From assembly GCA_963713475.1 (NCBI GenBank), contig CAVQLY010000005.1, positions 77,955-141,954 on the forward strand: a stretch of 64,000 nt of DNA. Direction: 5' to 3'. The position numbers and the translations under genes are program-made. This stretch comes from an uncultured Thermoleophilia bacterium. Its GTDB lineage: Bacteria > Actinomycetota > Thermoleophilia > UBA2241. Shown here one piece after another: positions 20,460 through 62,398 of this stretch. Position 1 is the stretch's first letter. Each line of letters opens with the position of its first letter. The notes under the pieces were generated by a model that saw only the letters and a list, made by a program, of their open reading frames with translations, did no database searches and had not been told where the DNA came from.

Positions 20460-20478
20460 TCACCGGAATCCGGTGATT
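20460..20478 (-). promoter_or_regulatory. P palindrome, copy 1 (atcaccggaatccggtgat)
   Basis: Perfect 8+3+8 palindrome, about 115 nt upstream of ATG 20355. In gene orientation it reads TCACCGG-ATT-CCGGTGA followed by TGAC. Confidence 0.6.
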
Positions 20479-30954: not shown

Positions 30955-30971
30955 TCACTGGATTCCGGTGA
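30955..30971 (+). promoter_or_regulatory. P palindrome, copy 2 (tcactggattccggtga, one mismatch)
   Basis: Sits within the conserved context gccacgctcaccgtcgcccaggaa-P-agacaacgcc, about 69 nt upstream of ATG 31032. Confidence 0.55.
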
Positions 30972-31031: not shown

Positions 31032-33491
31032 ATGAGCGACGAACCGACTTCCGAGAACTCTCCCACTCCATCAGACGAGGGCGGCCTGGTGATGAGGTCC
31101 ACCGACCCGCCGCCGGGACAGGTCGAGAGTGCGGCGGGCGAAAGCCGCGGGCGGTGGATGCGCTGGAAGGCGAGGGCGAACAGGATCCTCCCTCGCCGTC
31201 CGTCCGAGCCCGAAGATGGCATGACCAGCCTCGTACCAGGGGTCATCCTGTTCCTGTGTCTTCTGGGCGTGGCCGTGCTGTCCATCCTCGCGATCACGCT
31301 GCCCACTCCGCTGCCGGAGAGCGCACCGGTGGACCAGTACTCCGCGGCGCGGGCCATGGCCCACATCCGGTCGCTGGCCGCACGATCCCACGCGGTCGGC
31401 ACGCCGGCGCACGCCGAGGCGGAGGCGTACCTCATCGCTCAGCTGAAGCAGCTCGGGCTCGAGACCCAGGTGCAGCGGTCGCTTGGGGTCAATCCCGAGA
31501 ACCTCAAGGACGTGACACACGTGGAGAACGTCCTCGCCCGGCTGCGTGGCTCCGAAAGCGGAGGGAAGGCCGTCCTTCTGATGGCGCACTACGACTCCGT
31601 GCCGACCGGGCCCGGGGCAGCCGATGACGCCTCGGGCTGCGCCACCCTGCTGGAGACCGCCCGTGCCCTGACGGCCGGAGGCCCGTCGCCGGCGAACGAC
31701 GTCATCTTCCTGTTCACCGATGGAGAGGAAGAGTGGGTGATGGGCTCGGAGGCCTTCGTCCGGGAGCACCCCTGGGCGAAGGACGTCGGCGTCGCACTCA
31801 ACGTGGATTGCGAGGGCCTGACCGGCGGCGCAGTCAGGATCAACGACGTCAGCCCTGACAGCGAGTGGCTGATCTCAGAGTTGACCGGCGCTGCCCCAAA
31901 CGCCTACGCCACCTCCTTCATTCCGGACTTCGACCGCGTGTTCCCGACCGGTGGAGCCAACGACTTCACCACAGTCTTCAAGACTGCCGGCATTCCAGGC
32001 TTCCTGGCCAGCTCCGATGGCGGCCCCATCTATCACGTCAGCGTGCTGGAGGATCCTGCACACGTGCACCTGGACTCCCTGCAACACCAGGGGACGTACG
32101 CCCTTGCGTTCGCTCGCCGCTTCGGGAGTCTCGATCTCACCGTTGCGCATCACGGTGCGGCCGTCTATTTCAACGCGGTCGGGAACCACCTCATGGTCGT
32201 CTACCCGACCAGCTGGGTCATTCCGCTGGCGATCCTGGCAGCCCTGGCGTGGGCCTGCGCGCTGGTGTTCGGGCTGCGCTGGGGGCAGGTCTCGGTGCGG
32301 GGCATCCTCCTGGGGGTGTTGGCCTCGCTCATCGTCATGGCAGCCATGGCCGCGATGGGCTTCCTGCTCTGGCGCCTGATAACGACCATCTATCCGCAGT
32401 ACACGAAGTGGGGCGGTGACATCTTCAACGCCCTCTACTACTGGCTCGCCTTCCTGGCGCTCGGCGTGGGGCTGGGCGCGCTGCTCCACATCGGCTTTCG
32501 CACCCGGATCCGGACGGCGGAACTGGCGCTGGGAGGTCTGTCGGTGTGGCTGGCGTTGGCCGTGATCTTCGGCATCTGGGTGCCAGGCGCCTCCTACGTC
32601 GTCACTTGGCCGTTGCTGTTCGCCGGCATCGGCGTATCGGGATGGTTCGCCCTGCGCCACCGAGGCTCCGCGACGGCCTGGAGGATCGGCTGGCTGGTGC
32701 TGTATGCAGTCCCTGCCTTCGCGCTGATGGTCCCCTTGTTCTACCTGGCGCTGTTCCCGCCGGACTTCTGGATCGTCTTGCTCTTCGCGGGTCTGCTGGT
32801 CGGGCTGCTGGCGCCGCATCTTGCGATCGTCGCACGGCCGCGCAAGTGGTGGCTCCCGGTCCTCATGGGAGTCGTCGCCGTGGCCTTCCTCGTCGCCGGG
32901 CATCTCACGTCGGCCTACACGCCCCAGCGCCCGCTCCCCGACGGCGTCACGTATGCCCTGAGCGCGGACACGGGCAAGGCCTACTGGGTCTCGTGGTACG
33001 AGCTGGATCCCTGGACGGAGCAGTTCTTCCAGGAGGCGGACGCCGGCGGTGACTGCAGTGACATCTGGCCTGAGGTCACGTCGTCCTACAAGGCGCAGGC
33101 TCCTCGGGCCGATCTCGCTGCGCCGACTGTGGAAGTACTGCCCACGACGGCTTCCGGCATCTTCCGTCTGCGAATCGTACCGGCCCCGGGGACGTGGTCG
33201 ATCTACGTCAGCACCGTGCCAAAGGCGAGACCGGTCACGTACTACGTGGACGCCAAGCCTCTGAAGTCCGACGGCTGGACCGCCTACTGGGCTCCGCCCG
33301 CGGAGGGCTACAACCTGTCCGTGAAGACACGTGGTCACTCGCTCAAGCTGCGCGTGATGGCTCAGACCCTCGGGCTGCCGACGATCCCGGACTTCACGTA
33401 CGAGGCTCGTCCGGCTTGGATCGTGCCCTCGGAGGACTACTGGGAGAACACGACCTGGGTCGCCAAGACCGTCTCCCTTGAGAAGGAGTAG
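31032..33491 (+). CDS. M28-family metallopeptidase fused to a polytopic membrane domain
   Basis: ORF 31005..33491. ATG 31032 is preceded by gagaggggg. Motifs MAHYDSVPTGPGAADDASG and FLFTDGEEEWVMGSEAF, followed by about 8 hydrophobic helices. Confidence 0.8.
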   Translation: MSDEPTSENSPTPSDEGGLVMRSTDPPPGQVESAAGESRGRWMRWKARANRILPRRPSEPEDGMTSLVPGVILFLCLLGVAVLSILAITLPTPLPESAPVDQYSAARAMAHIRSLAARSHAVGTPAHAEAEAYLIAQLKQLGLETQVQRSLGVNPENLKDVTHVENVLARLRGSESGGKAVLLMAHYDSVPTGPGAADDASGCATLLETARALTAGGPSPANDVIFLFTDGEEEWVMGSEAFVREHPWAKDVGVALNVDCEGLTGGAVRINDVSPDSEWLISELTGAAPNAYATSFIPDFDRVFPTGGANDFTTVFKTAGIPGFLASSDGGPIYHVSVLEDPAHVHLDSLQHQGTYALAFARRFGSLDLTVAHHGAAVYFNAVGNHLMVVYPTSWVIPLAILAALAWACALVFGLRWGQVSVRGILLGVLASLIVMAAMAAMGFLLWRLITTIYPQYTKWGGDIFNALYYWLAFLALGVGLGALLHIGFRTRIRTAELALGGLSVWLALAVIFGIWVPGASYVVTWPLLFAGIGVSGWFALRHRGSATAWRIGWLVLYAVPAFALMVPLFYLALFPPDFWIVLLFAGLLVGLLAPHLAIVARPRKWWLPVLMGVVAVAFLVAGHLTSAYTPQRPLPDGVTYALSADTGKAYWVSWYELDPWTEQFFQEADAGGDCSDIWPEVTSSYKAQAPRADLAAPTVEVLPTTASGIFRLRIVPAPGTWSIYVSTVPKARPVTYYVDAKPLKSDGWTAYWAPPAEGYNLSVKTRGHSLKLRVMAQTLGLPTIPDFTYEARPAWIVPSEDYWENTTWVAKTVSLEKE

Positions 33492-33516
33492 GCGTCAGGC
33501 CCACGGGCTTTGATAC

Positions 33517-33685
33517 CACTGACGGAGGTGCTGCAGTTCCACCCCGCGGTGTTCTGCTGTCTCGGTGGCTGCCCATGAGGTGCGTGGAGCGCCTGCAAAT
33601 GGGCGGAGGCTGTGCGCTCTCGGCGTCACCCGTCTCGCAGACGCGAGGTTGAGTCAGGCCAGTCCCGTGGGCAGATCCGTGGGCA
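33517..33685 (-). repeat. Truncated tRNA-Cys 3' fragment (33517..33537) + type-1 conserved arm (33538..33685)
   Basis: ccactgacggaggtgctgcag aligns to ccgctgatggaggttttgcag of the other copies. The arm is roughly 85-90% identical by eye to 35279..35440 and 36786..36934. Confidence 0.6.
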
Positions 33686-33702
33686 GCAGGCCGGCCGCGA
33701 AA

Positions 33703-33734
33703 GAGGCCCGCCGCCCTCACGGGTAGCGGGCCTC
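33703..33734 (-). terminator. Hairpin H, copy 1 (GC-rich stem, GUGA loop in gene orientation)
   Basis: gaggcccgccgccctcacgggtagcgggcctc, 117 nt past the stop at 33851. Confidence 0.6.
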
Positions 33735-33850
33735 TTCGGGAAGCTGGCGGCCGGGTTCCGATCAGAGAGGCCGGGCCGCCTGCGAGAGGCTGCGCTCAGC
33801 ACACGTCTCGATCGGTAGCGCCGCCCAAGCCGCACTCGGCGGCCGACGCA

Positions 33851-34444
33851 TCACTTGACCACGAAGGTCACGTCGTCCCAACTGGTCCAGTCGTGCGGAG
33901 GCACGAGCTGGTACTCCCACGGATGGGCGAACAGCGGGTCGGCCATCGTGCGCGGGAACTTGTCGCTGTAGGACACCTTGTAGGTGCCGCGCGCGAGCGG
34001 CGGCATCGGGACGAGCCAGTCCCTGCCCCACACCCCCGCTTGGCTGCCGTTGTAGGGAGCGACCATCATTTCGGGATGGTCGGTCATCCAGGCGTTCCAG
34101 AGATATGGGGCGCCCCAGTAGCTCTGGCACGTGGAGGCATCGACCGTCTTGATCACCAACGCCGGCCGCGGAGACACTCTCGTGACCTCGAGCTTGATCA
34201 ACATGCTCTCCGACTGATTGATGATGCCGCCACGAGTGATGGCGACCCAGGAGGAGCCGACCCTGACGTCGGCCCTCGCCGTCGCGGGCACGCTCTTCGC
34301 GGGCCCCCACGTCATGGTCGCATCATCCACCCAGCTGACGCTTCCGTCGGGACCCACCTGGTAGTAGAAGTCGGCCAGCGCGGGCGCCGCGCTCGCCAGG
34401 AGCAACAGCAAGGCGCAACACAGCAGGAACAGCAGCTTCGTCAT
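33851..34444 (-). CDS. Secreted Trp-rich protein of unknown function (paralog of 19669..20355)
   Basis: GGAGGG RBS. Signal peptide MTKLLFLLCCALLLLLASAAPALA. Intact 197-aa ORF. Confidence 0.7.
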   Translation of the reverse strand: MTKLLFLLCCALLLLLASAAPALADFYYQVGPDGSVSWVDDATMTWGPAKSVPATARADVRVGSSWVAITRGGIINQSESMLIKLEVTRVSPRPALVIKTVDASTCQSYWGAPYLWNAWMTDHPEMMVAPYNGSQAGVWGRDWLVPMPPLARGTYKVSYSDKFPRTMADPLFAHPWEYQLVPPHDWTSWDDVTFVVK

Positions 34445-34508
34445 GACGCCCTCCGATCTTCGGCACTCGGACTACGAGATCATCATCGAAGCGTCGGGCG
34501 GCCCCGTC

Positions 34509-34527
34509 ATCACCGGAATCCGGTGAT
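34509..34527 (-). promoter_or_regulatory. P palindrome, copy 3
   Basis: atcaccggaatccggtgat, about 74 nt upstream of ATG 34444. Confidence 0.6.
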
Positions 34528-34564
34528 TCTTGCGTGCCGATGAGCGTGACAGATCGCAGTCGAT

Positions 34565-34602
34565 GCTCTGTGCGTGTGGGCAAAGTCCCCGAAACGGTGG
34601 CC
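34565..34602 (-). repeat. Box B, copy 1
   Basis: The reverse complement reads ggccaccgtttcggggactttgcccacacgcacagagc. It starts 10 nt after hairpin H copy 2 in gene orientation. Confidence 0.6.
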
Positions 34603-34612
34603 GGCCGCAGAA

Positions 34613-34644
34613 GGGGCCCGCCGCCCTCACGGGCGGCGGGCCTC
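34613..34644 (-). terminator. Hairpin H, copy 2 (fully paired variant)
   Basis: ggggcccgccgccctcacgggcggcgggcctc. The internal loop of the consensus is closed here by C-G/G-C pairs. Confidence 0.6.
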
Positions 34645-34779
34645 CGCGCAGAGTGAGCGGTATGGACGCGACCATTCCGCGCGCAATGGCGTGGGCGACG
34701 CGGCCGATACCGTCGTGAACTGGTTGCGACGTCACGCGGCTATCGCGGGCGGCCCGTGCGCGTCAGGCTGATGCGCTGG

Positions 34780-35031
34780 TCAGGCCACCGGCTTCGCCGG
34801 CGGTGAATGATGCCGCAACAGGGTCATGACGAATGTGACCACGGCGCCGATGATGCCCACCGCAAGTCCAAGAACGCCGCCGAAGGCGATTAGGGACCCG
34901 ACGGCGGTAGTACCCGTGCTGGATTGGTCGCTGATGGTTGCGCCGAGGACGAACGCGAGGACCGACACGGCGGCCAGCAGCAGGAACCACCACGTCCGTT
35001 TCCACTTCGATGTCGAGAGTACCCCAGACAT
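34780..35031 (-). CDS. Small two-TM membrane protein (83 aa), unknown function
   Basis: ORF 34780..35178. ATG 35031 is preceded by aaaggggcgggag. Sequence WWFLLLAAVSVLAFVLG...GVLGLAVGIIGAVVTFVM. Confidence 0.5.
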   Translation of the reverse strand: MSGVLSTSKWKRTWWFLLLAAVSVLAFVLGATISDQSSTGTTAVGSLIAFGGVLGLAVGIIGAVVTFVMTLLRHHSPPAKPVA

Positions 35032-35234
35032 GACTCCCGCCCCTTTCTGGCTCCGGCTCCGGGGAGTACCCCGAGAAGCGCGGAGACCGGCCTCGCGGGC
35101 CGGTCTCACCAGTGGCTCACCGCCGGTGCGTGGTGGCCGCGTACGTGCCGCCGACGGGTCAACGCCTCCCACAAGCATGGTACTCCCCGGTCAACGCGCC
35201 CTCGTGTTCATCGGGGCCACACGCGGAGAGAAGT

Positions 35235-35440
35235 TGGAGGCGGCGAGCGGAGTCGAACCGCTGATGGAGGTTTTGCAGTTCCATCCCGCAGTGTTCTGCT
35301 GTCCCAGTGGCTGCCCGTGAGTTGCACAGAACGCCTGCAAATGAGCGGAGGCTGTGCGCTCTCGGCGTCACCCGTCTCGCAGGCGCGAGATTGGGGCGGG
35401 CCAGTCCCGTGGGCAGATCGGTGCGCAGATCGGTGGGCAG
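35235..35440 (-). repeat. tRNA-Cys(GCA) 3' half (35235..35278) + type-1 conserved arm
   Basis: The reverse complement reads CTGCAAAACCTCCATC-AGCGGTTCGACTCCGCT-CGCCGCC-T-CCA, i.e. anticodon loop, T-arm, acceptor 3' strand, discriminator U and CCA. No 5' half is present. Confidence 0.7.
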
Positions 35441-35608
35441 CCCGGCCGATATCTGCGGACTGGGTTCGCCACGGCGGCGGCCCGTGCCGGCGCCGAGGAA
35501 CGCGACATCATGCGGCAGACGGGACGCCGTTCCACGGTCATGGTCAGGCGCTACATACGCGGCGGCAGTCTGTTCCGCAGCAACGCAGCCTCGGTGGTCG
35601 GCCTCTAG
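35441..35608 (+). pseudogene. Tyrosine-recombinase (integrase) C-terminal stump
   Basis: RYLRTGFATAAARAGAEERDIMRQTGRRSTVMVRRYIRGGSLFRSNAASVVGL. This is the box II region with the RRY catalytic-Tyr context. Nothing recognisable lies upstream. Confidence 0.6.
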
Positions 35609-35620
35609 AGAGGCTCGTGA

Positions 35621-35652
35621 AGAGGCCCACCGCCGTCACGGGTAGCGGGCCT
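35621..35652 (-). terminator. Hairpin H, copy 3 (degenerate, 2 mismatches)
   Basis: gaggcccaccgccgtcacgggtagcgggcctc, between the integrase stump end (35608) and the lipoprotein stop (35690). Confidence 0.5.
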
Positions 35653-35689
35653 CGGTGCGAAGAAGGCGGCCGGGACCCGGGCACTCAAC

Positions 35690-36394
35690 CTAAGGCGTGG
35701 GCGAGGCGACCGACACCGGGCGGAACTTGAAGTTGGGGGTCATGAAAAGATACCCCGACTCGCGCGTGGGGTAGACGAATCCCTCGGCCTCCTCGTCGGC
35801 TTCGAAGAAGTCCACCTCCCCCTGCGCGCGGTTGCCTGTCTCGGCCGCCCACACCAGACCCTTGGGGAAGTTGACCTCCGGGTCGAAGGGCGCCATGGCG
35901 TAGGTGACGACGATGTACGTCCTGCCAGCACGCAGGGTGACCGGCGCGACCTTGACGAAACGGTAGCACGCTTCCAGTGGACTGTTCCGCTGGACCATGC
36001 CTCTGACGAGCAGCTTCTTCGTCGCCATATCGTAGATGCCCGTGGGGTGGGCGTGGCGCAGCCCGTTGCCGCCGTCGTCGAAGTAGCCGAGGTGCGTCAC
36101 TTGGATGTCGACCGTGGGCTTGAAGGTCCAGCCGAGCGAAGTCTCACCGATGTCGGTGGTCGCGTCATCAGGGGGAGGGAACGTGGCGGCCGGGATGGGC
36201 TTGGCTCCCGGCGTCCACGTGTGGGTCGGAGTGGGCGTCGGCGTACTGCTGACGGTGGCAGCGACGCTCGGAGACGGTGCCGCAGTCCCGGTTGTTGCGG
36301 TGTCCGAGCCGCCGCAGGCGGCGAGCACCAGAGCTACGGCGGCGAACGCCGCCAGCGCGGCGGCCCAGATGATCTTCCTCAGACGAGATTCCAT
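35690..36394 (-). CDS. Lipoprotein, DUF4082-like beta-sandwich suggested (paralog of 39432..40094)
   Basis: ORF 35690..36412. GGGAGGGA RBS before ATG 36394. Lipobox LVLAACGG, then a Thr/Pro/Ser linker, then GWTFKPTVDIQVTHLGYFDD...RAGRTYIVVTY. Confidence 0.7.
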   Translation of the reverse strand: MESRLRKIIWAAALAAFAAVALVLAACGGSDTATTGTAAPSPSVAATVSSTPTPTPTHTWTPGAKPIPAATFPPPDDATTDIGETSLGWTFKPTVDIQVTHLGYFDDGGNGLRHAHPTGIYDMATKKLLVRGMVQRNSPLEACYRFVKVAPVTLRAGRTYIVVTYAMAPFDPEVNFPKGLVWAAETGNRAQGEVDFFEADEEAEGFVYPTRESGYLFMTPNFKFRPVSVASPTP

Positions 36395-36449
36395 GGCCCC
36401 GATCCCTCCCATCGTGTGACCACGTCGGACGCCGCGTCAGTCCGCCTTC

Positions 36450-36507
36450 GGGAGTCCCGTATGACGAGACTTGTACGCCCGGTTCGTCATGGCGACAAGC
36501 GTTTATC
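36450..36507 (-). promoter_or_regulatory. Type-2 leader/promoter block, copy 1
   Basis: gggagtcccgtatgacgagacttgtacgcccggttcgtcatggcgacaagcgtttatc. In gene orientation it contains TTGTCG-N17-TACAAG. Confidence 0.45.
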
Positions 36508-36557
36508 GCCCCTGCAGGCCGACGGGAGCGTGGCTGCCGATCTCGCGTGGCCGGACG

Positions 36558-36597
36558 TCCTCTGTGCGTGTGGGCCGGTCCACGAACGGCGGCCGGC
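36558..36597 (-). repeat. Box B, copy 2 (divergent, no adjacent H)
   Basis: Plus-strand sequence cctctgtgcgtgtgggccggtccacgaacggcggccggcc. Confidence 0.45.
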
Positions 36598-36741
36598 CAG
36601 TCGCAGGGAGGACGGCCGGTCTGCCGGCAGGGACGGTGCAGCAGGAGGGCATCATTGGGCAAGACGCAGGCAGCCATGCTGCTTCGCAGGAATGCGGGAC
36701 TGCAGCGGGCACCAGAAGGTGGCCAGGCACAGGACAGAAGT

Positions 36742-36934
36742 TGGAGGCGGCGAGCGGAGTCGAACCGCTGATGGAGGTCTTGCAGTCCCATCCCGCAGTG
36801 TTCCGCTGTCTCAGTGGCCGCCCCTGAGTTGCACAGAACGCCTGCAAATGTGCGGAGGCTGTGCGCCCTCGGCGTCACCCGTCTCGCTGACGCGAGGTTG
36901 AGTCAGGCCAGTCCCGTGGGCAGATGCGTGGGCA
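36742..36934 (-). repeat. tRNA-Cys 3' half (36742..36785) + type-1 conserved arm
   Basis: tggaggcggcgagcggagtcgaaccgctgatggaggtcttgcag. The arm aligns to the 33.5 kb and 35.3 kb copies. Confidence 0.7.
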
Positions 36935-36963
36935 ACGCCGCGGGCGACTTGCCGGTCGCGGAT

Positions 36964-36995
36964 GAGGCCCGCTGCCCTCACGGGGGGCGGGCCTC
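36964..36995 (-). terminator. Hairpin H, copy 4
   Basis: gaggcccgctgccctcacggggggcgggcctc, 35 nt past the stop at 37031. Confidence 0.6.
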
Positions 36996-37030
36996 CTGCT
37001 ATCAGATGTCCGGGTGCGTTCGGTACCCGA

Positions 37031-37531
37031 TCACCGTCCCGCGATGAAGATGTCTGCGTAGCCGGTGATGTAGACCGGCCCGGCCTCGTTCAGCGCAGAG
37101 GTGAGGCCTATCGCCTTCGTCTTGTGTCCGACCAGCCACTGGTACTGCGGCGAGGCGGCCGTCACCCGCCCGTTGGCCTGGAACCTGTAGGTGCTCACGA
37201 AGTTGTAGACGCCCACCTGGTAGCCGCTGATCGTCACGGGGGCGACGGCGTCAGCGTCGTACCCGCCGACGTAGATGGTCCAGTCCTCGATGAAGTGCTG
37301 GGTCCTGCCGGTGTACCGGCTGAGTGCGCCGCCGTCCCGCTCGACGTAGGCGATGTCGCCGTTGATGGCGCCCGTGATGGGGCCGAACCAGTCGCCAATG
37401 GGGTTGATGTCAGGAGCGACCGAGAGGTCCGTATGGCACCTGAGCGGCGCGTTGCTCTTGGACTGCGCCGCAGCCGGCCCCGCCAGCGCGAGCACGAGCA
37501 GTGCCAGAGTGATGAACAGTACCTTTCTCAT
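37031..37531 (-). CDS. Secreted beta-rich protein of unknown function (166 aa)
   Basis: ORF 37031..37696. GGGGAGG RBS before ATG 37531. Signal peptide MRKVLFITLALLVLALAGPAAA. Confidence 0.7.
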   Translation of the reverse strand: MRKVLFITLALLVLALAGPAAAQSKSNAPLRCHTDLSVAPDINPIGDWFGPITGAINGDIAYVERDGGALSRYTGRTQHFIEDWTIYVGGYDADAVAPVTISGYQVGVYNFVSTYRFQANGRVTAASPQYQWLVGHKTKAIGLTSALNEAGPVYITGYADIFIAGR

Positions 37532-37596
37532 TGCGCTACCTCCCCAGTGTCGTGACCTGCGATGCATCAGTGTGCGGCGTTCGCGGCGCACTGTCA

Positions 37597-37613
37597 TCAC
37601 CGGAATCCGGTGA
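37597..37613 (-). promoter_or_regulatory. P palindrome, copy 4
   Basis: tcaccggaatccggtga, about 76 nt upstream of ATG 37531. Confidence 0.6.
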
Positions 37614-37650
37614 TTTCTGGGTGCCGGCGAACGTGACAGATGCTGTCGGT

Positions 37651-37690
37651 GCGCTTGGTGCGTGTGGACAAAGTCCCCGAAGCGGTGGCC
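37651..37690 (-). repeat. Box B, copy 3
   Basis: The reverse complement reads ggccaccgcttcggggactttgtccacacgcaccaagcgc. It starts 10 nt after hairpin H copy 5. Confidence 0.6.
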
Positions 37691-37700
37691 GGTCAAAGAA

Positions 37701-37732
37701 GAGGCCCGCTGCCCTCACGGGTGGCGGGCCTC
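37701..37732 (-). terminator. Hairpin H, copy 5
   Basis: gaggcccgctgccctcacgggtggcgggcctc. It follows a roughly 210-bp slot (37733..37945) with no gene. Confidence 0.6.
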
Positions 37733-37945
37733 TGCCAGCTGAACTGAGAGCCGCCCGCCGCAGCTCGGGAGAATGCTGACAAGTCAGCCGTCCAAGACGT
37801 GCCTACCTTGTCGCTTCCCCAGCGCATCACGCCGGTATCCATCCCTAGCGTGTCGCGCTGCGCCATGCCGAGCATCTGCGACGGGCACCTTGATACTGCG
37901 CGCCTTCGGCGGCGGCCACAAGCGTTGGCCCCAGCGTTCAGGCAA

Positions 37946-37979
37946 GAAGGCCCGCTGCCCTCACGGGTGGCGGGCCTCC
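37946..37979 (-). terminator. Hairpin H, copy 6
   Basis: gaaggcccgctgccctcacgggtggcgggcctcc, 17 nt past the GYD stop at 37995. Confidence 0.6.
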
Positions 37980-37994
37980 TGCTGTCGTGCGCCG

Positions 37995-38288
37995 TCAGGG
38001 CAACTGGCTCACAAGGCCGGCGAACTCCTCAGGCGTGAAGGCGCGGAGCGTCTGAGTGGTGACATAGCCCTGAGCGGCCAGCGCCATCGCCGTCACGGCT
38101 GCGACCTCGTCGCTGGGACCTTCTGCCACCGCCACGTAGTCGTAGGCGCCCATCGTGGCTCTGAAGCAGACCATCTTCCCGCCCGCGGCCTCGAGCGCCT
38201 TGATGCCCGCGTCGATCCGCGCCGGCGCGCCCTTGAGGTCGGCAAGTCCCTTCGGGGTCATGTTGAAGAGAAGGACGAACTGCGCCAT
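37995..38288 (-). CDS. GYD-domain protein (97 aa)
   Basis: MAQFVLLFNMTPKGLADLKGAPARIDAGIKALEAAGGKMVCFRATMGAYDYVAVAEGP, with the characteristic G-x-YD core. Confidence 0.8.
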   Translation of the reverse strand: MAQFVLLFNMTPKGLADLKGAPARIDAGIKALEAAGGKMVCFRATMGAYDYVAVAEGPSDEVAAVTAMALAAQGYVTTQTLRAFTPEEFAGLVSQLP

Positions 38289-38376
38289 GGTGCACCTCCT
38301 GTGCCGTGGCGTCGCATCCTCTGTGCGGCGCCGTCACCAACCACCTCTACGGTAGGTGTGGCGAGCGCCGCCGTCT

Positions 38377-38393
38377 TCACCGGAATCCGGTGA
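38377..38393 (-). promoter_or_regulatory. P palindrome, copy 5
   Basis: tcaccggaatccggtga, about 96 nt upstream of ATG 38288. The upstream context gctcgccgtcgcccaagaa is conserved. Confidence 0.6.
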
Positions 38394-38441
38394 TTCTTGG
38401 GCGACGGCGAGCATCGGCGGCGACTTCCCCCGGCCAGCAAA

Positions 38442-38473
38442 GTGGCCCGCTGCCCTCACGGGTGGCGGGCCTC
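38442..38473 (-). terminator. Hairpin H, copy 7
   Basis: gtggcccgctgccctcacgggtggcgggcctc. It is followed in gene orientation by a truncated box B. Confidence 0.6.
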
Positions 38474-38583
38474 TGTGTGAGGCGGGCGGCGGTCACAAGG
38501 CTCCTCGGGCGCATGACGAGTGGCGATCCCGGCGACGCACCGTGCCGGATGCGGAGCCGTCCAGTCAGTAGGTTGTCGGCATG

Positions 38584-39124
38584 TCACGGGGCGGGACTGG
38601 CGGTCGGCAGATCCTTCAGGTGCACGGTCTTGTCGTACACGACTCTGTTTGTGCTCTTCTGGTCGTTGTCGTTGGCCCCGACGCTTCCCGCGAGGCCCTC
38701 CTCCGCAGTCCAGACCAGGCTGTCGGGGTCGTCCGGCGCCTTGGCGATCTGGAAGCCCCACGTGTAGCCCGAGTCCTTGTTGTACATGGTGAATCGAATC
38801 GCTGTCCTTCCACCGGTTCTTCTTCACGTATTCCGTGATGTCGATCCACCCGCTGTCGTCGAGGTAGCCGGCCTTCTTCACAAGGTCCCCGTTGACATAC
38901 GCCTTGCCCACTTCATCGACGTTGTAGATGCGGAGATACCATCCTTCACTCGCCGGAGTGGGGCTGGGCGTCGGGCTGACGGCCACCGCCGCGATGGGCG
39001 AGCTCGAAGGCGAGTCAGACGCAATGGTAGTTGTGCCACCGCAGGCTGCGAGCACCAGAGCCGCAGCGATGAACAGCGCGAGCGTCGCAACCCAGATGGA
39101 CTTCCTCAGGCTTGAGCGTCTCAT
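38584..39124 (-). pseudogene. Lipoprotein (lectin-like beta-sandwich?) with one frameshift near 38790
   Basis: ATG 39124 gives MRRSSLRKSIWVATLALFIAAALVLAACGG...ITEYVKKNRWKD. The sequence then continues in another frame as (AIRFT)MYNKDSGYTWGFQIAKAPDD... to the stop at 38584. Confidence 0.6.
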
Positions 39125-39181
39125 GACTCCGATCCCCCCCCATCGCGCCACCACGTCGGACGCCCGTGCCGGTCCGCTCTC

Positions 39182-39239
39182 GGGAGTCCCGTATGACGAA
39201 ACTTGTACGCCCGGTTCGTCGTGGCGACAAGCGTTTGTC
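39182..39239 (-). promoter_or_regulatory. Type-2 leader/promoter block, copy 2
   Basis: gggagtcccgtatgacgaaacttgtacgcccggttcgtcgtggcgacaagcgtttgtc. Confidence 0.45.
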
Positions 39240-39288
39240 ACCGTCGCCGGACAACGGGTGGGTGGACCGCTTTCGGACCTGACCGGAC

Positions 39289-39332
39289 GCTCTGTGCGTG
39301 GACGGAGGCCCCTAGACGGCAGTCGGTCGGCC
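39289..39332 (-). repeat. Box B, copy 4 (divergent)
   Basis: gctctgtgcgtggacggaggcccctagacggcagtcggtcggcc, starting 9 nt after hairpin H copy 8. Confidence 0.45.
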
Positions 39333-39341
39333 GTCGCAAAA

Positions 39342-39373
39342 GAGGCCCGCTGCCCTCACGGGTGGCGGGCCTC
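39342..39373 (-). terminator. Hairpin H, copy 8
   Basis: gaggcccgctgccctcacgggtggcgggcctc, 59 nt past the stop at 39432. Confidence 0.6.
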
Positions 39374-39431
39374 TGGCGAGACGAACGACCCTGCCCGCCA
39401 TACCTCGGGTCTACGGCGCCCGCGAAGTGAC

Positions 39432-40094
39432 CTAGAGCGGCTTGTACTTGAAGTTGGCGGTGATGAACTCGTTCGGGTTGGTCGGCGGGTAGACGAACTC
39501 GTCGGTCAGCGTCTCGCGGTAGCCTACGTACTCGATCTCGGGCGCGAAAACCAGCCCCGTCGGGCCGTTGACCTCGGGGTCGAAGGGCGGGTATGGAGAC
39601 GGTGGCCACCACGTAGGACGCGCCCGCCGCGAGGGTCACGGGCTGGATCCTCGTGAAGCGGTAGGCCCCGTCCAGCGAGCTCTTCTTCTCGACGGTGGTC
39701 TTCACCAGCAGCTTCTGTGTGGATACATCGAAGATGCCCACTGGATGCGGGTGGCGCAGGCCGTTCCCGCTGTCGTCGAAGTAGCCGAGGTGCGTCACTT
39801 GGATATCGACCGTTGGCTTGAACTCCCAGCCGTTCGTGCTCGACTGGAAGCCCTCTGTAGTGCCCTCCTGAGCAGGGATGGATGCGGCCGGGATGGGCTT
39901 CGCGCCAGGCGCCCAAGTACCGGTCCAGTCGGCGTCGGCGTACTGCTGATGGTGGCAGCGACGCTCGGAGATGGTGCCGCAGTCCCAGTCGTTGCGGTGT
40001 CCGAGCCGCCGCAGGCGGCGAGCACGAGAGCCGCGGCGACGACCAGCGGCCAGCGTGGCAGCCCAGATGGACGTCCTCAAACGAGACGTTTCAT
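39432..40094 (-). pseudogene. DUF4082-like lipoprotein paralog of 35690..36394, with at least 4 frameshifts
   Basis: ATG 40094 hits a stop after 5 codons. Homologous segments (IWAATLAA; LAACGGSDTATTGTAAPSPS; GWEFKPTVDIQVTHLGYFDDSGNGLRH; FDPEVNGPTGLVF...ANFKYKPL*) lie in three different frames. Confidence 0.6.
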
Positions 40095-40150
40095 GGTCCC
40101 GATCCCTCCCATCGTGTGACCACGTCGGACGCCCGCGCCGGTCCGTCGTC

Positions 40151-40207
40151 GGGAGTCCCGTATGACGAAACTTGTACGCCCGGTTCGTCGCGGCGACAAG
40201 CGTTTGT
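40151..40207 (-). promoter_or_regulatory. Type-2 leader/promoter block, copy 3
   Basis: gggagtcccgtatgacgaaacttgtacgcccggttcgtcgcggcgacaagcgtttgtc. Confidence 0.45.
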
Positions 40208-40348
40208 CACGCCGGAGACCGAACGTCCGCGTCGCTCAGGCGCGATGGTCCATTCAGCCCGATTCGAGTAGCTTCGACGGGATGTCGGCATCTAGGCCGT
40301 CAAGAGTGTCGATGCACACAGAGTAGGCATCCATGCGCGGAGAGAAGT

Positions 40349-40540
40349 TGGAGGCGGCGAGCGGAGTCGAACCGCTGATGAAGGTTCTGCAGTCGTCAGG
40401 CGGTCATGCGCGCCGGTAGTCGCCTGGACGCGATTGTGCTGCAAAGTCCAGGTTTCCGGCCGCCCTCCGTGATGCGCGCTGCACGGCTGTGGTGCGCCGT
40501 GCTGAGGCGTCTTATCGGCCGTTCGTCGGCAGGTGAGCCG
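40349..40540 (-). repeat. tRNA-Cys 3' half (40349..40392) + type-2 conserved arm
   Basis: tggaggcggcgagcggagtcgaaccgctgatgaaggttctgcag. The arm (tcgtcaggcgg...gattgtgctgcaaagtccagg...gaggcgtcttatcggc) aligns to 46711..46857. The outside flank gcggagagaagt is shared with the 35.2 kb copy. Confidence 0.65.
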
Positions 40541-46436: not shown

Positions 46437-46666
46437 GACGCTCGCCCCCTTCACCCCTCGGTCGGCACGGCGTCGACGCGCCGCGCCACATAGATGGAAT
46501 ATGCCCAACCGTGCATGAGTACTCCGTTGTGCCGGAGTGGAGGATGACTCTCTTCATCGGCGAGCAGCGTAGCTGACGGCGGGCGGCGGGCCTCTTCTCA
46601 CTGCCGATTCGGAAGGAAATGGGCAGGAGGCGGCCACAAGAAAGTGCCCATTTGCAGGAGAAAGAT

Positions 46667-46857
46667 TGGAGGCGGCGAGCGGAGTCGAACCGCTGATGGA
46701 GGTTTTGCAGTCGTCAGGCGGCGGTGCTGGGCCGGAGCGTCCCGTGCGCCATTGCGCTGCACAGTCCGAGTTACCGATTGGACTCGATGCTGCCTCGTCC
46801 TCGGCTGTTGTGGGTCGTGAGGAGGCGTCTCGTCGGCAACTTGTCGGCAGTGCCGCG
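46667..46857 (-). repeat. tRNA-Cys 3' half (46667..46710) + type-2 conserved arm
   Basis: tggaggcggcgagcggagtcgaaccgctgatggaggttttgcag, then tcgtcaggcgg..., homologous to 40393..40540. Confidence 0.65.
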
Positions 46858-55582: not shown

Positions 55583-55622
55583 CCGGGTGCCGTATCGGGG
55601 ACTATGCTCACACGTACAGAAC
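55583..55622 (+). repeat. Box B, copy 5 (divergent, no adjacent H)
   Basis: ccgggtgccgtatcggggactatgctcacacgtacagaac. Confidence 0.45.
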
Positions 55623-55741
55623 GTCCGGTCGGGCGCAATGCTGGGAGACGCCCCGATCAGCCTGCTGGAGTGACAATCGCCCAACGGGCCTATCTCTAGC
55701 CACGCCGGGCACCTCCCGCAGTAGGAGGGAGGTGAGAAGCC

Positions 55742-56296
55742 ATGAGAGGACCGTACCGCAAGTACGGCGTCTTGGCGCTGCTCGCGCTGCTCCTGCTGCT
55801 CGGTTTGCTGCTGGTCGCCGCACCGGCAGGCGCGGAGACCCGGACCGCCTACACGGCGACCACGACCTACCTTCCCGACGACCCCGACAACGCCCCCGGC
55901 AACTGGGTCTTGTACGAGAAGAAGCAGGCCTGCGCTCTGGACATTGTCGAGGTCTTTTGGACCGAGTGCAGCGACCCCCGCCGGACCGGCAGGAACGTCC
56001 AGCATCTGAACAGCTACGGGCAAGGACACTTCTGGGGGCAGGGCGTCTTCAATCCCTTCTGGGCGATTCAGTACCTGACGGGAACGCTCTACGTCGACTA
56101 CGGGGGAGGCGGCGTCTGGGAAGGCAGCTCGACCGCGACCTACGACCGCAAGACCGGGACGACCCAGACTGGCGTGGACTACGGCGTGTCCGGCAGCGTC
56201 GCCGGATTGCGTGCGACCTACACCGTCAGAGAGACTGCTCAAGGCAACACCTTTGTAACCACCGTCACCGAGACCGGGTACATCATCGAGCCGTGA
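55742..56296 (+). CDS. Secreted protein of unknown function (184 aa)
   Basis: RBS ggagggagg. Signal peptide GVLALLALLLLLGLLLVAAPAGA. Intact ORF. Confidence 0.7.
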   Translation: MRGPYRKYGVLALLALLLLLGLLLVAAPAGAETRTAYTATTTYLPDDPDNAPGNWVLYEKKQACALDIVEVFWTECSDPRRTGRNVQHLNSYGQGHFWGQGVFNPFWAIQYLTGTLYVDYGGGGVWEGSSTATYDRKTGTTQTGVDYGVSGSVAGLRATYTVRETAQGNTFVTTVTETGYIIEP

Positions 56297-56325
56297 CCTC
56301 TGCGGCTGCAGCGGGAGGAACAAGG

Positions 56326-56357
56326 GAGGCTCGCCACCCGTGAGGGCAGCGGGCCTC
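56326..56357 (+). terminator. Hairpin H, copy 9
   Basis: gaggctcgccacccgtgagggcagcgggcctc, 30 nt past the stop at 56296. Confidence 0.6.
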
Positions 56358-56367
56358 TTCAGCGCTC

Positions 56368-56406
56368 GGCCACCGTTTCGGGGACTTCGCCCACACGCAC
56401 AGAAGC
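56368..56406 (+). repeat. Box B, copy 6
   Basis: ggccaccgtttcggggacttcgcccacacgcacagaagc, starting 10 nt after hairpin H copy 9. Confidence 0.6.
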
Positions 56407-56660
56407 GCGACTGGAGGAGGGGCAAGAACCGCGGCGGCCGCCCTGGGAGGCGGCCGGGGGGCGCCAGGCAATGGAGCTGCCGGCGCGGTGGTCTGGTTCT
56501 GACGGTTCCTGAAATCAACCATAGCACCGGGACCGGAACGGTGCGCCGTTGCATGGCGGCCCGCCGGCAGTCTTCCGCTGGAAGTCGGCTACGACGGGCG
56601 CGTCGTCATTCTCGGCCGCGCTCGCGGCACGGGACAAGGGGCTGAGGGGTCCGGCAGGTT

Positions 56661-56773
56661 GACGACGAAGAACGGCCCCGGCGCCGTCCTGCGACCCGGG
56701 GCCGTCTGCCTCCGGCGGAGCGGGGACAGAACAAGGGGACCTACGCCCCTCCTAGCGCGTTCCGCCGACTGCA
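56661..56773 (+). repeat. Element E, copy 1 (about 110 nt, two predicted hairpins)
   Basis: ggccccg-N15-cggggcc, then ggcggagcggggacagaacaaggggacctacgcccctcctagcgcgttccgccgactgc. Confidence 0.5.
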
Positions 56774-57007
56774 CCCACGTTGTCGGTGCGTTCCGGCATC
56801 CCTTTAGCCTCGAGAGTAGTCAGTCCGGTAGACGCGACGCCAGCGCCAGATGCGGGACCGGGCGCCGAAGCCGCCTGGCATCGCCTGACGCAGGACGACC
56901 CCGCCGCGAAACGTCCAACTAGGCGCTAGACGAGTCAAACGTCAGCGTGCAGGGTCGTGAGGGTAGCCTAGACGATGCTGGAGCCACCGACCAGGGTCGT
57001 TGCCGAT

Positions 57008-57114
57008 GGACGCAGAAGCGGCCCCGAAGCCGAAGCCCGGGGCCGCCCGTCACCGGCGAAGCGGGGCAGAACGAGGGGACCTGTGCCCCCTCCTAGCGCC
57101 TTCCGCCGGCTGCG
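57008..57114 (+). repeat. Element E, copy 2
   Basis: ggccccg-N10-cggggcc, then ggcgaagcggggcagaacgaggggacctgtgccccctcctagcgccttccgccggctgc. Confidence 0.5.
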
Positions 57115-57377
57115 CCTCTGTTCTCAGCCATGGGCCATCCCCTTGGCGAGCCTGGCTTGGGGGGATCAGGATGTTGTTAGCAAAACGGAGAGGCAGCCCT
57201 TCGTCAAGCGCGGGCCCGCGCGTGGGGGCCGCCTACGGGTCTAACCGGCACCGGTGGATTGTGGCCCTGCCGACGACCGCTCCGACAGCCGATGCTCTGC
57301 GTATCATCAGCAGTCAAACGTTTCGCACTAGGGATGCAGAACGGTCCGCCGCCAGTGAGCTGCCTGGGTGACGATGA

Positions 57378-57409
57378 GAGGCTCGCCGCCCGTGAGGGCA
57401 GCGGGCCTC
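57378..57409 (+). terminator. Hairpin H, copy 10
   Basis: gaggctcgccgcccgtgagggcagcgggcctc, closing a gene-less stretch of about 1 kb. Confidence 0.6.
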
Positions 57410-57418
57410 TCCATGACC

Positions 57419-57458
57419 GGCCACCGTTCTAGGGACCTCGCCCACACGCACAGAACGC
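57419..57458 (+). repeat. Box B, copy 7
   Basis: ggccaccgttctagggacctcgcccacacgcacagaacgc, starting 9 nt after hairpin H copy 10. Confidence 0.6.
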
Positions 57459-57493
57459 GACCTCCCTCTGCCACGCTCGCCGTCGCCCAAGAA

Positions 57494-57510
57494 TCACCGG
57501 ATTCCGGTGA
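57494..57510 (+). promoter_or_regulatory. P palindrome, copy 6
   Basis: Context gccacgctcgccgtcgcccaagaa-tcaccggattccggtga-tgacaacgcc, about 106 nt upstream of ATG 57609. Confidence 0.6.
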
Positions 57511-57608
57511 TGACAACGCCACTCACCACTCCCATTGTGGAGGTGGGAAGGAGGCGAGAGATAGCAGGGACAGTGCATCGTGAAGGTTGAATCGAAGAGA
57601 AGCTGGTC

Positions 57609-57883
57609 ATGGTCTTCATCACGTTGTGCAGAGTGAGGTCCAGGCATCTCGAAGGGGCACACCGCCCGCCGCCTCGACTACGGTATCCCGAGGGGATGCG
57701 GGTGTTGGGCGAGTGGTGGCTGCAGACTCCGGACCCTGAGGTGATTCTGATTACAGAAGCGAACAGCGCGGCCCCGATGCTGGCTGCGCGTGCGGCTTGG
57801 GATGATGTCTTCGACATCACGATACTCCCGGCCGTCAGGCCGAAGAAGGGATGGCGATCGCCCGTCAGGCGATGGCGGGGTAG
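57609..57883 (+). pseudogene. DUF3303-like small protein with one frameshift near 57840
   Basis: MVFITLCRVRSRHLEGA...YPEGMRVLGEWWLQTPDPEVILITEANSAAPMLAARAAWDDVFDITILP. The natural-looking end EEGMAIARQAMAG* is in another frame (TAG 57881). Confidence 0.55.
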
Positions 57884-57916
57884 CGGACGGGTCTGCAGCC
57901 GCGGGCGATGCAGCAA

Positions 57917-57948
57917 GAGGCCCGCGACCCGTGAGGGCAGCGGGCCTC
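57917..57948 (+). terminator. Hairpin H, copy 11
   Basis: gaggcccgcgacccgtgagggcagcgggcctc, 34 nt past TAG 57881. Confidence 0.6.
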
Positions 57949-57980
57949 TGTTAATGCCGAAATGTCTAGCCTATGGCGAA

Positions 57981-58122
57981 GGCTCAGACGGCCCCCGTCC
58001 TTGCCAAGAATCGTGCCAACATGCCAATCCGAACGATGGGGATTGTGGCAGTGTATGGGGCTGTGTGGAGGCTGGAGGAGCACCGCAGGCACGGTCAGGG
58101 TTGATGAAAATCGTGTCGCGGC
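57981..58122 (+). repeat. Leader block R4, copy a (about 140 bp)
   Basis: ggctcag..ccttgccaagaatcgtgcc..gattgtggcagtgtatggggctgtgtggaggctggaggagcaccgcaggcacggtcaggg..atcgtgtcgcggc. Aligns to 61979..62118. Confidence 0.6.
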
Positions 58123-58223
58123 CTGTGAACGGCTGCCAGAAGGGGTCCGAAGCCAAGACTGGGAGGGGGCAGCGCATCGGGCACACCGTTTCTTCAGCCA
58201 GAACGAAGCGCGGGGGGTCTGAA

Positions 58224-61200: not shown

Positions 61201-61828
61201 TCTGGGCCTGGGGGGACGAGACGTCACCCGGCAGCGTCACGGAGGTCAACGGCTGCGGCACGGTCTCGGGGACGCACACCTACCTCAAACCGGGCGTCTA
61301 CACCGTGACGCTGACTGTGACCGACGATGACGGCGCCTCGAGCCAGCGCGTCTACGGGTACGTCGTGATCTACGACCCGAGCGCCGGGTTCGTCACCGGC
61401 GGCGGGTGGATCCTGTCGCCTGCCGGGGCGTACGTGCCCGACCCGGGCGCTGACCGGGACGGCCAGCTTCGGCTTCGTCACCAAGTACCTGAAGGGTGCC
61501 ACGGTGCCGACCGGCGAGACCGAGTTCGTGTTCCAGGCCGCGGGCACATGAACTTCCAGTCGACCAGCTACCAGTGGCTGGTTGTCTCCGGAAAGGACAA
61601 GGCCCAGTACAAGGGCAGCGGCACGATCAATGGTTCGGCGGCAACTACGGCTTCATGCTGACCGCGCTCGACGGACAGGTCTCTGGCGGCGGCAATCTCG
61701 ACAAGCTGCGCATCAAGATCTGGGACAAGACCAGCGGTGAGGTCATCTACGACAACAAGCCTGGTGCCGCGGACACTGCCGACCCGACCACGACCCTCGG
61801 CGGCGGCAGCATCGTCGTCCACAATTAG
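58224..61828 (+). pseudogene. Giant exported surface protein (SGDRVVW-type repeats, 7 FG-GAP/VCBS-like repeats, PKD-like domain), broken by at least 10 frame changes and an in-frame TAG
   Basis: ATG 58224 gives signal peptide MVRKGLFMVVFATATL. Motifs VSGDRVVW, ISGDRVAW and TVSGERVVW occur at 58.3-59.4 kb. VGDFNGDGKQDLV occurs 7 times at 59.6-60.5 kb. YFHVRAVNRAGYGG and THTYLKPGVYTVTLTVTDDDGAS follow. The end GGGSIVVHN* is at 61828. The pieces lie in 12 or more ORF-track fragments. A TAG occurs at about 60330. Confidence 0.65.
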
Positions 61829-62379: not shown

Positions 62380-62398
62380 ACACGATACACAATCGTGT
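62380..62398 (+). promoter_or_regulatory. 7-5-7 palindrome acacgat-acaca-atcgtgt
   Basis: Second copy of the 55534..55552 palindrome, 25 nt upstream of P copy 7. Confidence 0.4.

Follow-up and report, generated by a model that had tools for sequence, protein, structure and literature searches.

In integron arrays and in clusters of attC sites lacking integron integrases (CALINs), as with the repeats of Vibrio cholerae, small unrelated genes, mostly of unknown function, lie in one orientation with a near-identical palindromic repeat behind each, and strains differ cassette by cassette. Intergenic mosaics of another sort, the repetitive extragenic palindromes (REPs), bacterial interspersed mosaic elements (BIMEs) and BOX repeats, combine a palindromic unit with short boxes in fixed order. 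Tandem islands at tRNA or transfer-messenger RNA (tmRNA) genes arise by accretion, as in the streptococcal cis-mobilizable elements (CIMEs) and the Dehalococcoides ssrA islands (PMC5704250, PMC6323972, PMC3146451). The tuberculosis rho-independent terminator (TRIT), a mycobacterial terminator hairpin of conserved sequence, has 147 scattered copies, is mostly bidirectional and overlaps the stop codon, and its authors suggest that a factor may read the motif (PMC3152330). Here we analyze a 64-kb window (the whole stretch of DNA studied, about 68% G+C) from an uncultured soil Thermoleophilia bacterium (Actinomycetota), in which a minus-strand array of small genes is separated by a recurring set of intergenic blocks: a hairpin (H), a box (B), a palindrome (P) and a so-called type-2 leader.

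We consider it moderately likely that this array belongs to an accretion island at a tRNA gene in which shared regulatory modules recombine with one another. The best explanation of the region as a whole is a strain-variable island downstream of tRNA-Cys, beginning at 33.5 kb and reaching at least 64 kb. The blocks and open reading frames (ORFs) listed by the initial annotation are present where it had placed them (Table 1); it had missed a repeat of about 214 nt (D1), the riboswitch at 35089-35178 and the block copies outside its interval. The relatives used for comparison were uncultured Thermoleophilia genome bins (metagenome-assembled genomes, MAGs), mostly ‘MFD’ long-read soil MAGs. They include a close strain (L047) and a second assembly, from another sample, of essentially the same strain as the window (L050/L051, ENA ERZ25039545). 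Both strains derive from Danish soil datasets, ERZ25039545 and ERZ25039462. The window and L050 differ by about 92 small indels in 20.5 kb, so single-gene frameshifts in the window are not to be trusted.

The array between 33.7 and 40.2 kb holds eight H, four B, three P and three leaders, with none expected by chance, and a degenerate H pattern matched seven times, whereas 100 shuffles gave an expectation of 0.00. The H element is compact, about 36 nt long, and reads (c)aGA-GGCCCGCCACCCGTGAGGGCAGCGGGCC-TCTTC; its core GGCCCGCCACCCGTGAGGGCAGCGGGCC occurs in all eight minus-strand copies. Its edges are sharp: computed over 71 copies (window plus related loci), information content falls to background by positions −4 and +34, setting the edges at −3/+33. 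The predicted fold has a 15-bp GC stem, a 4-nt GTGA loop and a U-rich tail, UCUUC(UUU), with a folding energy of −28 to −39 kcal/mol (z about −4.5). The stem is nearly fixed except at two internal positions, which change freely and for the most part in the direction of pairing; among 80 copies they read CA/CA in 36, CG/CG in nine and TG/CA in six. All 12 H copies in the window are co-oriented with the sequence they follow, and wherever an upstream gene was called H lies 19–140 nt past its stop codon. The copies are far from uniformly spread, since all 12 fall within 33.7–63.4 kb and none in the first 33.6 kb, and in relatives one 195-kb contig carries 14 copies versus one or two on several contigs of about 1 Mb. 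The initial annotation could match the H-B-P organization to no described element. H has the anatomy of an intrinsic terminator, TRIT-like and conserved in sequence, and transcription would probably end there. A consensus promoter and terminator scan of the GC-rich window DNA gave nothing informative, and Rfam returned no family matching H, B, the leader or the apparently gene-less slot described below. A peptide read across H-B from the GTG in the H loop was ruled out, as copies differ by 1-nt indels.

Many Streptomyces genomes carry a single hairpin, GGCCCGC(C/A)GCCCGTGAGGGCGGCGGGCC, with GAC...GTC flanks at most loci (L002, L005, L014, L017, L019, L020, L022, L023, L026, L027, L031, L032, L037, L041 and L043). 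Because several of these loci share downstream sequence, it looks like one orthologous site outside the present system.

D1, present in three copies in the array, ends in the 3′ half of a tRNA-Cys gene. In its last 55 nt the 3′ half of tRNA-Cys(GCA) can be recognized, with the anticodon loop CTGCAAA, the T arm AGCGG/TTCGACT/CCGCT, the acceptor strand CGCCGCC, the discriminator T and then CCA, and this end recurs at 40349 and 46667, where another arm sequence precedes it. The matches at 35235, 36742, 40349 and 46667 are all on the minus strand, with a conserved arm upstream of each. L047 carries an intact tRNA-Cys(GCA) together with a tRNA-Gly, and the 3′ 44 nt of this tRNA-Cys are identical to the tRNA-Cys half repeats of the window (T repeats); in L039 the T stem of the repeat shows a compensatory change. 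The T repeats are attachment-site scars of tandemly stacked integrative elements. Two such half-sites, with the same arm family and the flanking motif CTGCCGACANNNTGCCGACGAGA, bracket a 9.5-kb segment in L048 that holds a full-length tyrosine integrase gene at 19554-20618 and an SBP_bac_5 gene. The window has a comparable 6.3-kb segment at 40394-46711, with an SBP_bac_5 gene, bracketed by T40 and T46. Reading the 55-nt repeat as the 3′ end of a tmRNA or tRNA-Sec was ruled out, since the sequences differ and L047 shows tRNA-Cys. Its Rfam match to tRNA-Sec is weak; relatives do have tRNA-Sec adjoining arrays. A tRNA-Sec gene heads the array in two related MAGs (L013, 5531-5628; L021, 3926-4023), and in L013 B-P and a riboswitch come immediately after it.

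The integrase stump between D1 and H3 also adjoins H in L034, and short integrase C-terminal relics were found in L016, L029, L034, L047 and L048 as well. In L054 the reading frame of the stump continues upstream. All 120 matches in a word-indexed search for the stump were 32–95 aa long; a ‘split integrase’ made of short ORFs only was ruled out when a hidden Markov model search found proteins of 314–379 aa with the motif at the C-terminus. Integrase C-terminal ORFs of 32–95 aa are very common in metagenome assemblies, long contigs included, which suggests that such relics are widespread. A further block, K, follows H at several loci and in the window is seen at 58000 and 61994; K is the arm of tRNA-Phe-targeting elements. 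The two window copies (58000-58110 and 61994-62160, plus strand) consist of CTTGCCAAGAATCTTGCCGACATGCC plus about 130 nt and end in tRNA-Phe 3′-half fragments, and L034 has two K units in inverted orientation around an integrase fragment (658-1589). Given the tRNA-half repeats, arms and integrase relics, we regard these regions as graveyards of tRNA-targeting integrative elements.

Comparison with L047 places gains and losses at block boundaries, namely the edges of H. Window positions 26815-33691 and 37698-38473 match L047 at 99.35% and 99.87% identity, and 33692-37697 is absent from it. The missing 4.0 kb, bounded by the 3′ edge of H5 and the start of D1 copy 1, comprises four gene units and two D1-T scars. 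At the other end, homology restarts exactly at the 5′ edge of H7, beyond which the two strains share nothing until the tRNA-Cys sequence. In place of the two lipoprotein genes that the window has upstream of H7, L047 carries a Zn-ribbon gene, a gene of 233 aa, a relic of an integrase and the tail end of a gene for a secreted protein. The distance from the M28 peptidase gene to tRNA-Cys is 2.5 kb in L047 versus more than 30 kb in the window, where the tRNA is not reached, and the L047 sequence to the right of its tRNAs has no match in the window. The locus is therefore neither syntenic nor invariant, and cassette-wise turnover is real.

Parts of the array are also dispersed in relatives. Its cassettes occur singly in other Thermoleophilia MAGs with different neighbors, and the GYD orthologue has another upstream region in L009 and L011, with a different terminator or none. 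Gene remnants stand in front of H at 34688-34721 in the window and at about 13485-13560 in L047 (the H7 equivalent), so replacement is imprecise and not a precise site-specific cassette exchange. Module copies are 81–85% identical within the genome versus 79–91% between genomes; as the former are no more alike than the latter, the parts are old, with no recent burst. The cassette-array logic of the initial annotation thus holds for the cassette-wise strain differences with breakpoints at H edges; the exchange is imprecise, and the tRNA-Cys hotspot provides an ordinary route for gene gain.

The proposed order of H, then B, then P or the leader holds for three of the eight H copies in the array, the other five being followed by D1 (twice), the integrase stump, the slot and a P without B. 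Wherever H and B occur together the B core lies 33–35 nt beyond the H core, but B does not always come after H: the copy at 36560 follows a tRNA-Cys fragment instead, and in relatives B directly follows tRNA-Met (L033) and tRNA-Sec (L013). B lies 50–70 nt ahead of promoters, is predicted to be unstructured as RNA, and is non-coding because copies differ by 1-nt indels; our guess is an upstream protein-binding site. P is a 17-bp palindrome, TCACCGGATTCCGGTGA. In an alignment of some 33 distinct P sites, (T/A)GACA directly adjoins the palindrome, and a second patch of conservation (such as CAAGATG or CATGATG) follows 17 nt further on. By this pattern P is probably a sigma-70-type promoter whose −35 element (TGACAA/AGACAA) is overlapped by a 17-bp palindromic operator centered near −44. 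In L048, P with B 68 nt upstream precedes the M28 orthologue, a protein only 60% identical, which argues that both blocks are regulatory DNA and not merely mobile repeats; for P the same follows from the copy before the Trp-rich paralogue at 20.4 kb.

A riboswitch aptamer begins about 10 nt past the second P patch in many copies. The array has one c-di-GMP-II-GAG aptamer (Table 1). Two more copies lie on the plus strand of the window, one at 62466-62555 (40.8 bits against the RF03169 cut-off of 40) and one at 63470-63557 that matches the GCG variant at 33.6 bits, under its 47.9 cut-off. A further 16 c-di-GMP-II-GAG copies exceed the Rfam cut-off in 138.5 kb of related loci (L001-L042), a search set fetched solely for containing H. 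Riboswitch copies usually lie just past P, ahead of small secreted or membrane proteins. The type-2 leader, taken at first for an independent module, is tied to a single family of paralogous lipoproteins and moves together with their signal peptide, and we think it is the promoter, 5′ untranslated region (5′UTR) and signal-peptide module of that family; L033 has a related TTGACC-N17-TATAGC at the equivalent position, and the copies are too alike for covariation to be assessed. Another upstream module, with GGTGAC direct repeats about 20 nt apart (for example CAACGGTGACGATTGAACGGCTGAGGTGACAACC), is seen in L011 at about 7880-7930 and past B in L012, L021 and L029; it precedes GYD and other genes where P is absent.

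The slot between H5 and the GYD gene, described initially as gene-less, is conserved and structured. It is found in L021, L036, L012, L009, L047, L056, L057 and L058, and is 81–91% identical in at least six other loci. Indels between copies exclude a coding role. Its promoter-like sequence is conserved as TTGNNN-N17/18-(C)AGTAT, and in its predicted multi-hairpin fold three pairs have changed on both sides and still pair. We consider the slot a candidate for a small RNA some 190 nt long, for which H5 would serve as terminator. What lies downstream of that terminator varies: B-P in the window, B-leader in L036, D1 in L047 and a tRNA-Phe arm in L056 and L058.

These observations can be combined into the following scenario. 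Tyrosine-integrase elements would have inserted repeatedly into the 3′ half of tRNA-Cys, every insertion leaving a scar of an arm plus a tRNA-Cys 3′ half (D1-T33, D1-T35, D1-T36, T40 and T46). The elements would then have decayed, so that of their integrases only a 54-aa relic survives in the window. Their cargo would be lineage-wide small genes, many of them exported, each its own transcription unit with standard regulatory parts. Since these parts recur many times in one orientation, they could act as portable homology patches. Recombination among them, and with imported DNA of relatives, would add, delete or swap whole gene units, with junctions at H. We infer that this recombination is homologous rather than site-specific.

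Several points weigh against this scenario. ARAGORN found no tRNA in the 64-kb window, and a further 2.8 kb past the window holds no intact tRNA-Cys. The window has no intact integrase; as the initial annotation had noted, the stump is its only recombinase sequence. For RecA, the roughly 36 bp of homology that an H provides are a poor substrate. Two mismatched stem pairs persist in the most frequent variant of H (36 of 80 copies), which is identical across species; a simple terminator has no need of them. The H copies of the relatives were collected by a pattern search, which favors conserved copies. Finally, no linker of the window is more than about 75% like the one between H and D1 in L047, so the 4.0-kb indel is not a simple recent deletion.

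Some of these points would suit an integron-like system, in which H would be the analogue of attC and some recombinase, perhaps one of the tyrosine integrases that left relics beside H, would move promoter-gene-H cassettes site-specifically. H is near-invariant across species, both mismatches included, and both strain breakpoints lie at its edges; both in the window and in L034 an integrase relic stops 16–20 nt away from H; the units H-D1-tRNA-Cys′ and H-K-tRNA-Phe′ have H as their left edge; and the cargo is varied and in a single orientation. We nevertheless think this reading unlikely. No integron integrase was found, and no GTTRRRY/RYYYAAC pairs occur within −60/+90 nt of the eight H copies, in agreement with the lack of attC features reported before. 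The cassettes, judging by sequence conservation, bring their own promoters. Homology between cassettes of different genomes ignores H, ending for the Trp-rich cassette 77 nt before H here and 31 nt before it in L015, and gene remnants precede H. The relic beside H is the same old relic in two species and no active gene. K had been considered as evidence that H is an attachment core, and that argument is weakened, as K is a tRNA-Phe element arm and also stands behind an unrelated hairpin at 61.85 kb. The idea that H, a 36-nt hairpin with tRNA-arm-like symmetry, is a true attachment core for Thermoleophilia tyrosine recombinases is likewise unlikely; the near-invariance of H, mismatches included, and the junctions at its edges keep it alive.

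An H-B-P unit could alternatively be a non-autonomous element resembling a miniature inverted-repeat transposable element (MITE), inserted between existing genes and importing a terminator and a promoter. Three full units of about 140 nt are 80–85% identical (34506-34647, 37593-37735 and 57378-57514), with a sharp 5′ edge at H. This too is improbable, and more so than site-specific exchange at H, given that the unit is flanked by no terminal inverted repeats or target duplications and that 33.4–40.6 kb has only the H and P hairpins as inverted repeats, that the parts also occur alone or in different combinations (H-P, H-D1, tRNA-B-P), that P and B are kept at the orthologous position in a distant relative, and that within-genome copies are not younger than between-genome copies. 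Neither H nor P occurs in viral contigs (IMG/VR), which also ruled out a phage origin. A purely vertical history without mobility, in which a single ancestral unit was locally duplicated in tandem, the genes diverged and selection kept the control regions, would account for three of the seven genes being paralogous lipoproteins with a common leader and for the other genes and the blocks all lying on one strand. It is very unlikely, because the remaining cargo genes are mutually dissimilar, tRNA-Cys half-sites and an integrase relic are interleaved with the genes, and the same cassettes stand in other contexts in other genomes; the difference by entire cassettes between near-identical strains, seen in L047, largely refutes it. 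That the array is a chimera of mis-joined repeats in a noisy long-read metagenome assembly is hardly conceivable. Many 1-nt indels and frameshifted genes do mark the window and its relatives, but the independent L050/L051 assembly is colinear with the window over 27.0–64.0 kb, and the alternative haplotype L047 is internally consistent, with its tRNAs intact.

Table 1. Features of the array, its flanks and the second array (window coordinates)
Feature	Position	Strand	Remarks
D1 copy 1 (T33)	33483..33696	-	truncated tRNA-Cys 3′ half; abuts M28 gene end; also in L047
H1	33700..33735 (core 33705-33732)	-	3′ of Trp-rich gene, then D1
Trp-rich secreted protein	33851..34444	-	commonest H-terminated family; paralogue with own P at 19669-20353
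P module	34470..34554 (palindrome 34510-34526)	-	before Trp-rich gene; abutting −35-like TGACGG, −10-like GATGAT about 16 nt on
B	34566..34605 (core 34566-34580)	-	34 nt past H2 core
H2	34610..34645 (core 34615-34642)	-	perfect-stem variant; lipoprotein 3′-end remnant precedes
DUF4082 lipoprotein 3′-end remnant	34688..34721	-	79% identical to 35694-35727; between 2-TM gene and H2
Two-transmembrane (2-TM) peptide gene	34780..35031	-	
c-di-GMP-II-GAG riboswitch aptamer (Rfam RF03169)	35089..35178	-	before 2-TM gene; 60.6 bits, gathering score 40
D1 copy 2	35225..35438	-	tRNA-Cys 3′ half T35 at 35225-35279
Integrase relic	35440..35608	+	C-terminal 54 aa; HxxR and Tyr motifs; ordinary ~320-aa tyrosine integrase
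H3	35619..35654 (core 35624-35651)	-	3′ of intact DUF4082 lipoprotein; integrase stump converges from other strand
DUF4082-like lipoprotein	35690..36394	-	
Type-2 leader	36395..36535 (leader match 36448)	-	intact DUF4082 lipoprotein; TTGTCG-N17-TACAAG promoter-like + 5′UTR
B	36560..36598	-	165 nt past tRNA-Cys fragment T36; no H before it
D1 copy 3	36732..36945	-	tRNA-Cys 3′ half T36 at 36732-36787
H4	36961..36996 (core 36966-36993)	-	3′ of 166-aa secreted protein, then D1
166-aa secreted protein	37031..37531	-	
P module	37555..37641 (palindrome 37597-37613)	-	before 166-aa secreted protein
B	37654..37693	-	past H5
H5	37698..37733 (core 37703-37730)	-	slot RNA 3′ end; 3′ edge is breakpoint of 4.0-kb strain indel
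‘Gene-less slot’	37698..37925	-	promoter-like TTGTGG-N17-CAGTAT (37893-37921); ~190-nt conserved structured candidate RNA ending in H5
H6	37944..37979 (core 37949-37976)	-	3′ of GYD gene
GYD-domain protein	37995..38288	-	
P module	38335..38421 (palindrome 38377-38393)	-	before GYD; joined to H7 without B
H7	38439..38474 (core 38444-38471)	-	3′ of lipoprotein 2; 5′ edge is second strain breakpoint (38473/38474)
Lipoprotein 2	38584..39124	-	called intact in L050, 185 aa
Type-2 leader	39125..39265 (leader match 39180)	-	lipoprotein 2
B, degenerate	39290..39329	-	past H8
H8	39339..39374 (core 39344-39371)	-	3′ of lipoprotein 1
Lipoprotein 1 (DUF4082)	39432..40094	-	called intact in L050, 219 aa
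Type-2 leader	40095..40235 (leader match 40149)	-	lipoprotein 1
T40	40339..40532	-	tRNA-Cys 3′ half 40339-40393 with second-family arm
T46	46602..46850	-	K2-motif arm, tRNA-Cys 3′ half, then flank found downstream of intact tRNA-Cys in L047
P	20460..20476	-	before Trp-rich secreted paralogue, outside island
P	30955..30971	+	before M28 peptidase gene; conserved before L048 orthologue
Second array, same parts	55607..63557	+	four H, three B, three P, two riboswitches
Second-array H	56328, 57380, 57919, 63348	+	
Second-array B	55607, 56390, 57441	+	
Second-array P	57494, 62423, 63426	+	
Second-array riboswitches	62466-62555, 63470-63557	+	

The cargo is mostly unrelated, as first described. Across the window and related loci, 43 genes end within 200 nt of a co-oriented H; these fall into 24 BLAST families, and a start resembling a signal peptide is seen in about 45%. 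Most numerous are the families of the Trp-rich secreted protein (seven genes) and GYD (five genes), and among the array genes Pfam recognized only GYD and, weakly, DUF4082. Two lipoproteins had been described as disrupted. Both are called intact in L050, and, given this and the many indels noted above, their disruptions are probably long-read assembly errors; the frameshifts in lipoprotein 1 are not clearly at homopolymers. Lipoprotein 2 has its leader, signal peptide and lipobox region in common with the DUF4082 lipoproteins and an unrelated mature domain, which suggests that it arose by recombination inside the coding region.

The same blocks form a second array on the plus strand, and other Thermoleophilia MAGs also hold clustered arrays of them. 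Within the second array, another gene-free stretch (56400-57376, plus strand) runs from the B at 56390 to the H at 57380. Over its first 200 nt this stretch matches L021 at 89% identity, and an internal repeat of about 80 nt (56695-56772 and 57036-57113) is 84–91% identical to sequence in L008. Many genes between 43000 and 62000 are frameshifted, which fits long-read indel errors, and an FG-GAP repeat protein at 58.2–61.8 kb that is broken in the window is a single 1094-aa gene in L051. Window positions 57984-58562 are missing from L051.

A tRNA-linked accretion island with recombination between shared modules would show how an uncultured soil Thermoleophilia arranges part of its accessory, largely secreted, proteome: plug-in gene units that use standard control parts, are stacked next to a tRNA gene and are reshuffled among close strains. 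It would be a concrete case of regulatory repeats doubling as recombination junctions. The region is also a dense natural reservoir of the orphan c-di-GMP-II-GAG variant with a coherent gene set, which could aid identification of the ligand, and in a group without genetics it provides candidates for a small RNA and for the operator of a regulon. If H were in fact a recombination site, it would represent a second, integron-independent way of capturing cassettes, each with its own promoter and terminator.

Among known systems, REP/BIME mosaics differ from this locus in that H copies are single, co-oriented and clustered, without inverted REP pairs, and that the parts have terminator and promoter anatomy; no REP-associated tyrosine transposase (RAYT) was seen, although no search was aimed at one. 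P resembles a transcription factor regulon in having the same 17-bp palindrome at a fixed promoter position before many unrelated genes, conserved in a distant relative. Unlike in an ordinary regulon, about 60 nt around the palindrome are also conserved and the sites are strongly clustered in accessory islands. H shares with TRIT a lineage-specific, GC-rich hairpin at gene ends, conserved in sequence and structure and present in many copies, which fits a motif-reading factor; it differs in being oriented, lying 19–140 nt past the stop codon, clustering in islands and being rigidly linked to B. With integrons and CALINs the locus has in common the presence or absence of whole cassettes between strains (the window against L047). 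It differs from them in lacking an IntI integrase and attC cores, in having a 36-nt near-perfect hairpin as its repeat, and in its imprecise junctions and the promoter-like module (P or leader) that each unit carries.

The closest likeness is to accretion islands and CIMEs, with which the window and its relatives share one-strand direct repeats of the target RNA gene's 3′ part, arms beside these repeats, integrase relics, an intact tRNA at the boundary in one strain (L047) and large differences in content between strains. The likeness is only partial for the integrase, as the window has a relic and the full-length gene stands between two such repeats in L048, and for the tRNA, which is intact in L047. 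Unlike in those islands, the segments between repeats are tiny (1.5–1.7 kb, with one or two genes), the cargo carries standardized terminator and promoter parts that are found outside the island too, and part of the turnover has its junctions at H and not at the tRNA repeats. The combination is new as a variation on known systems, not as a system of its own kind: very small units with standardized promoter, riboswitch and terminator parts, gathered in tRNA-linked clusters and exchanged at the terminator.

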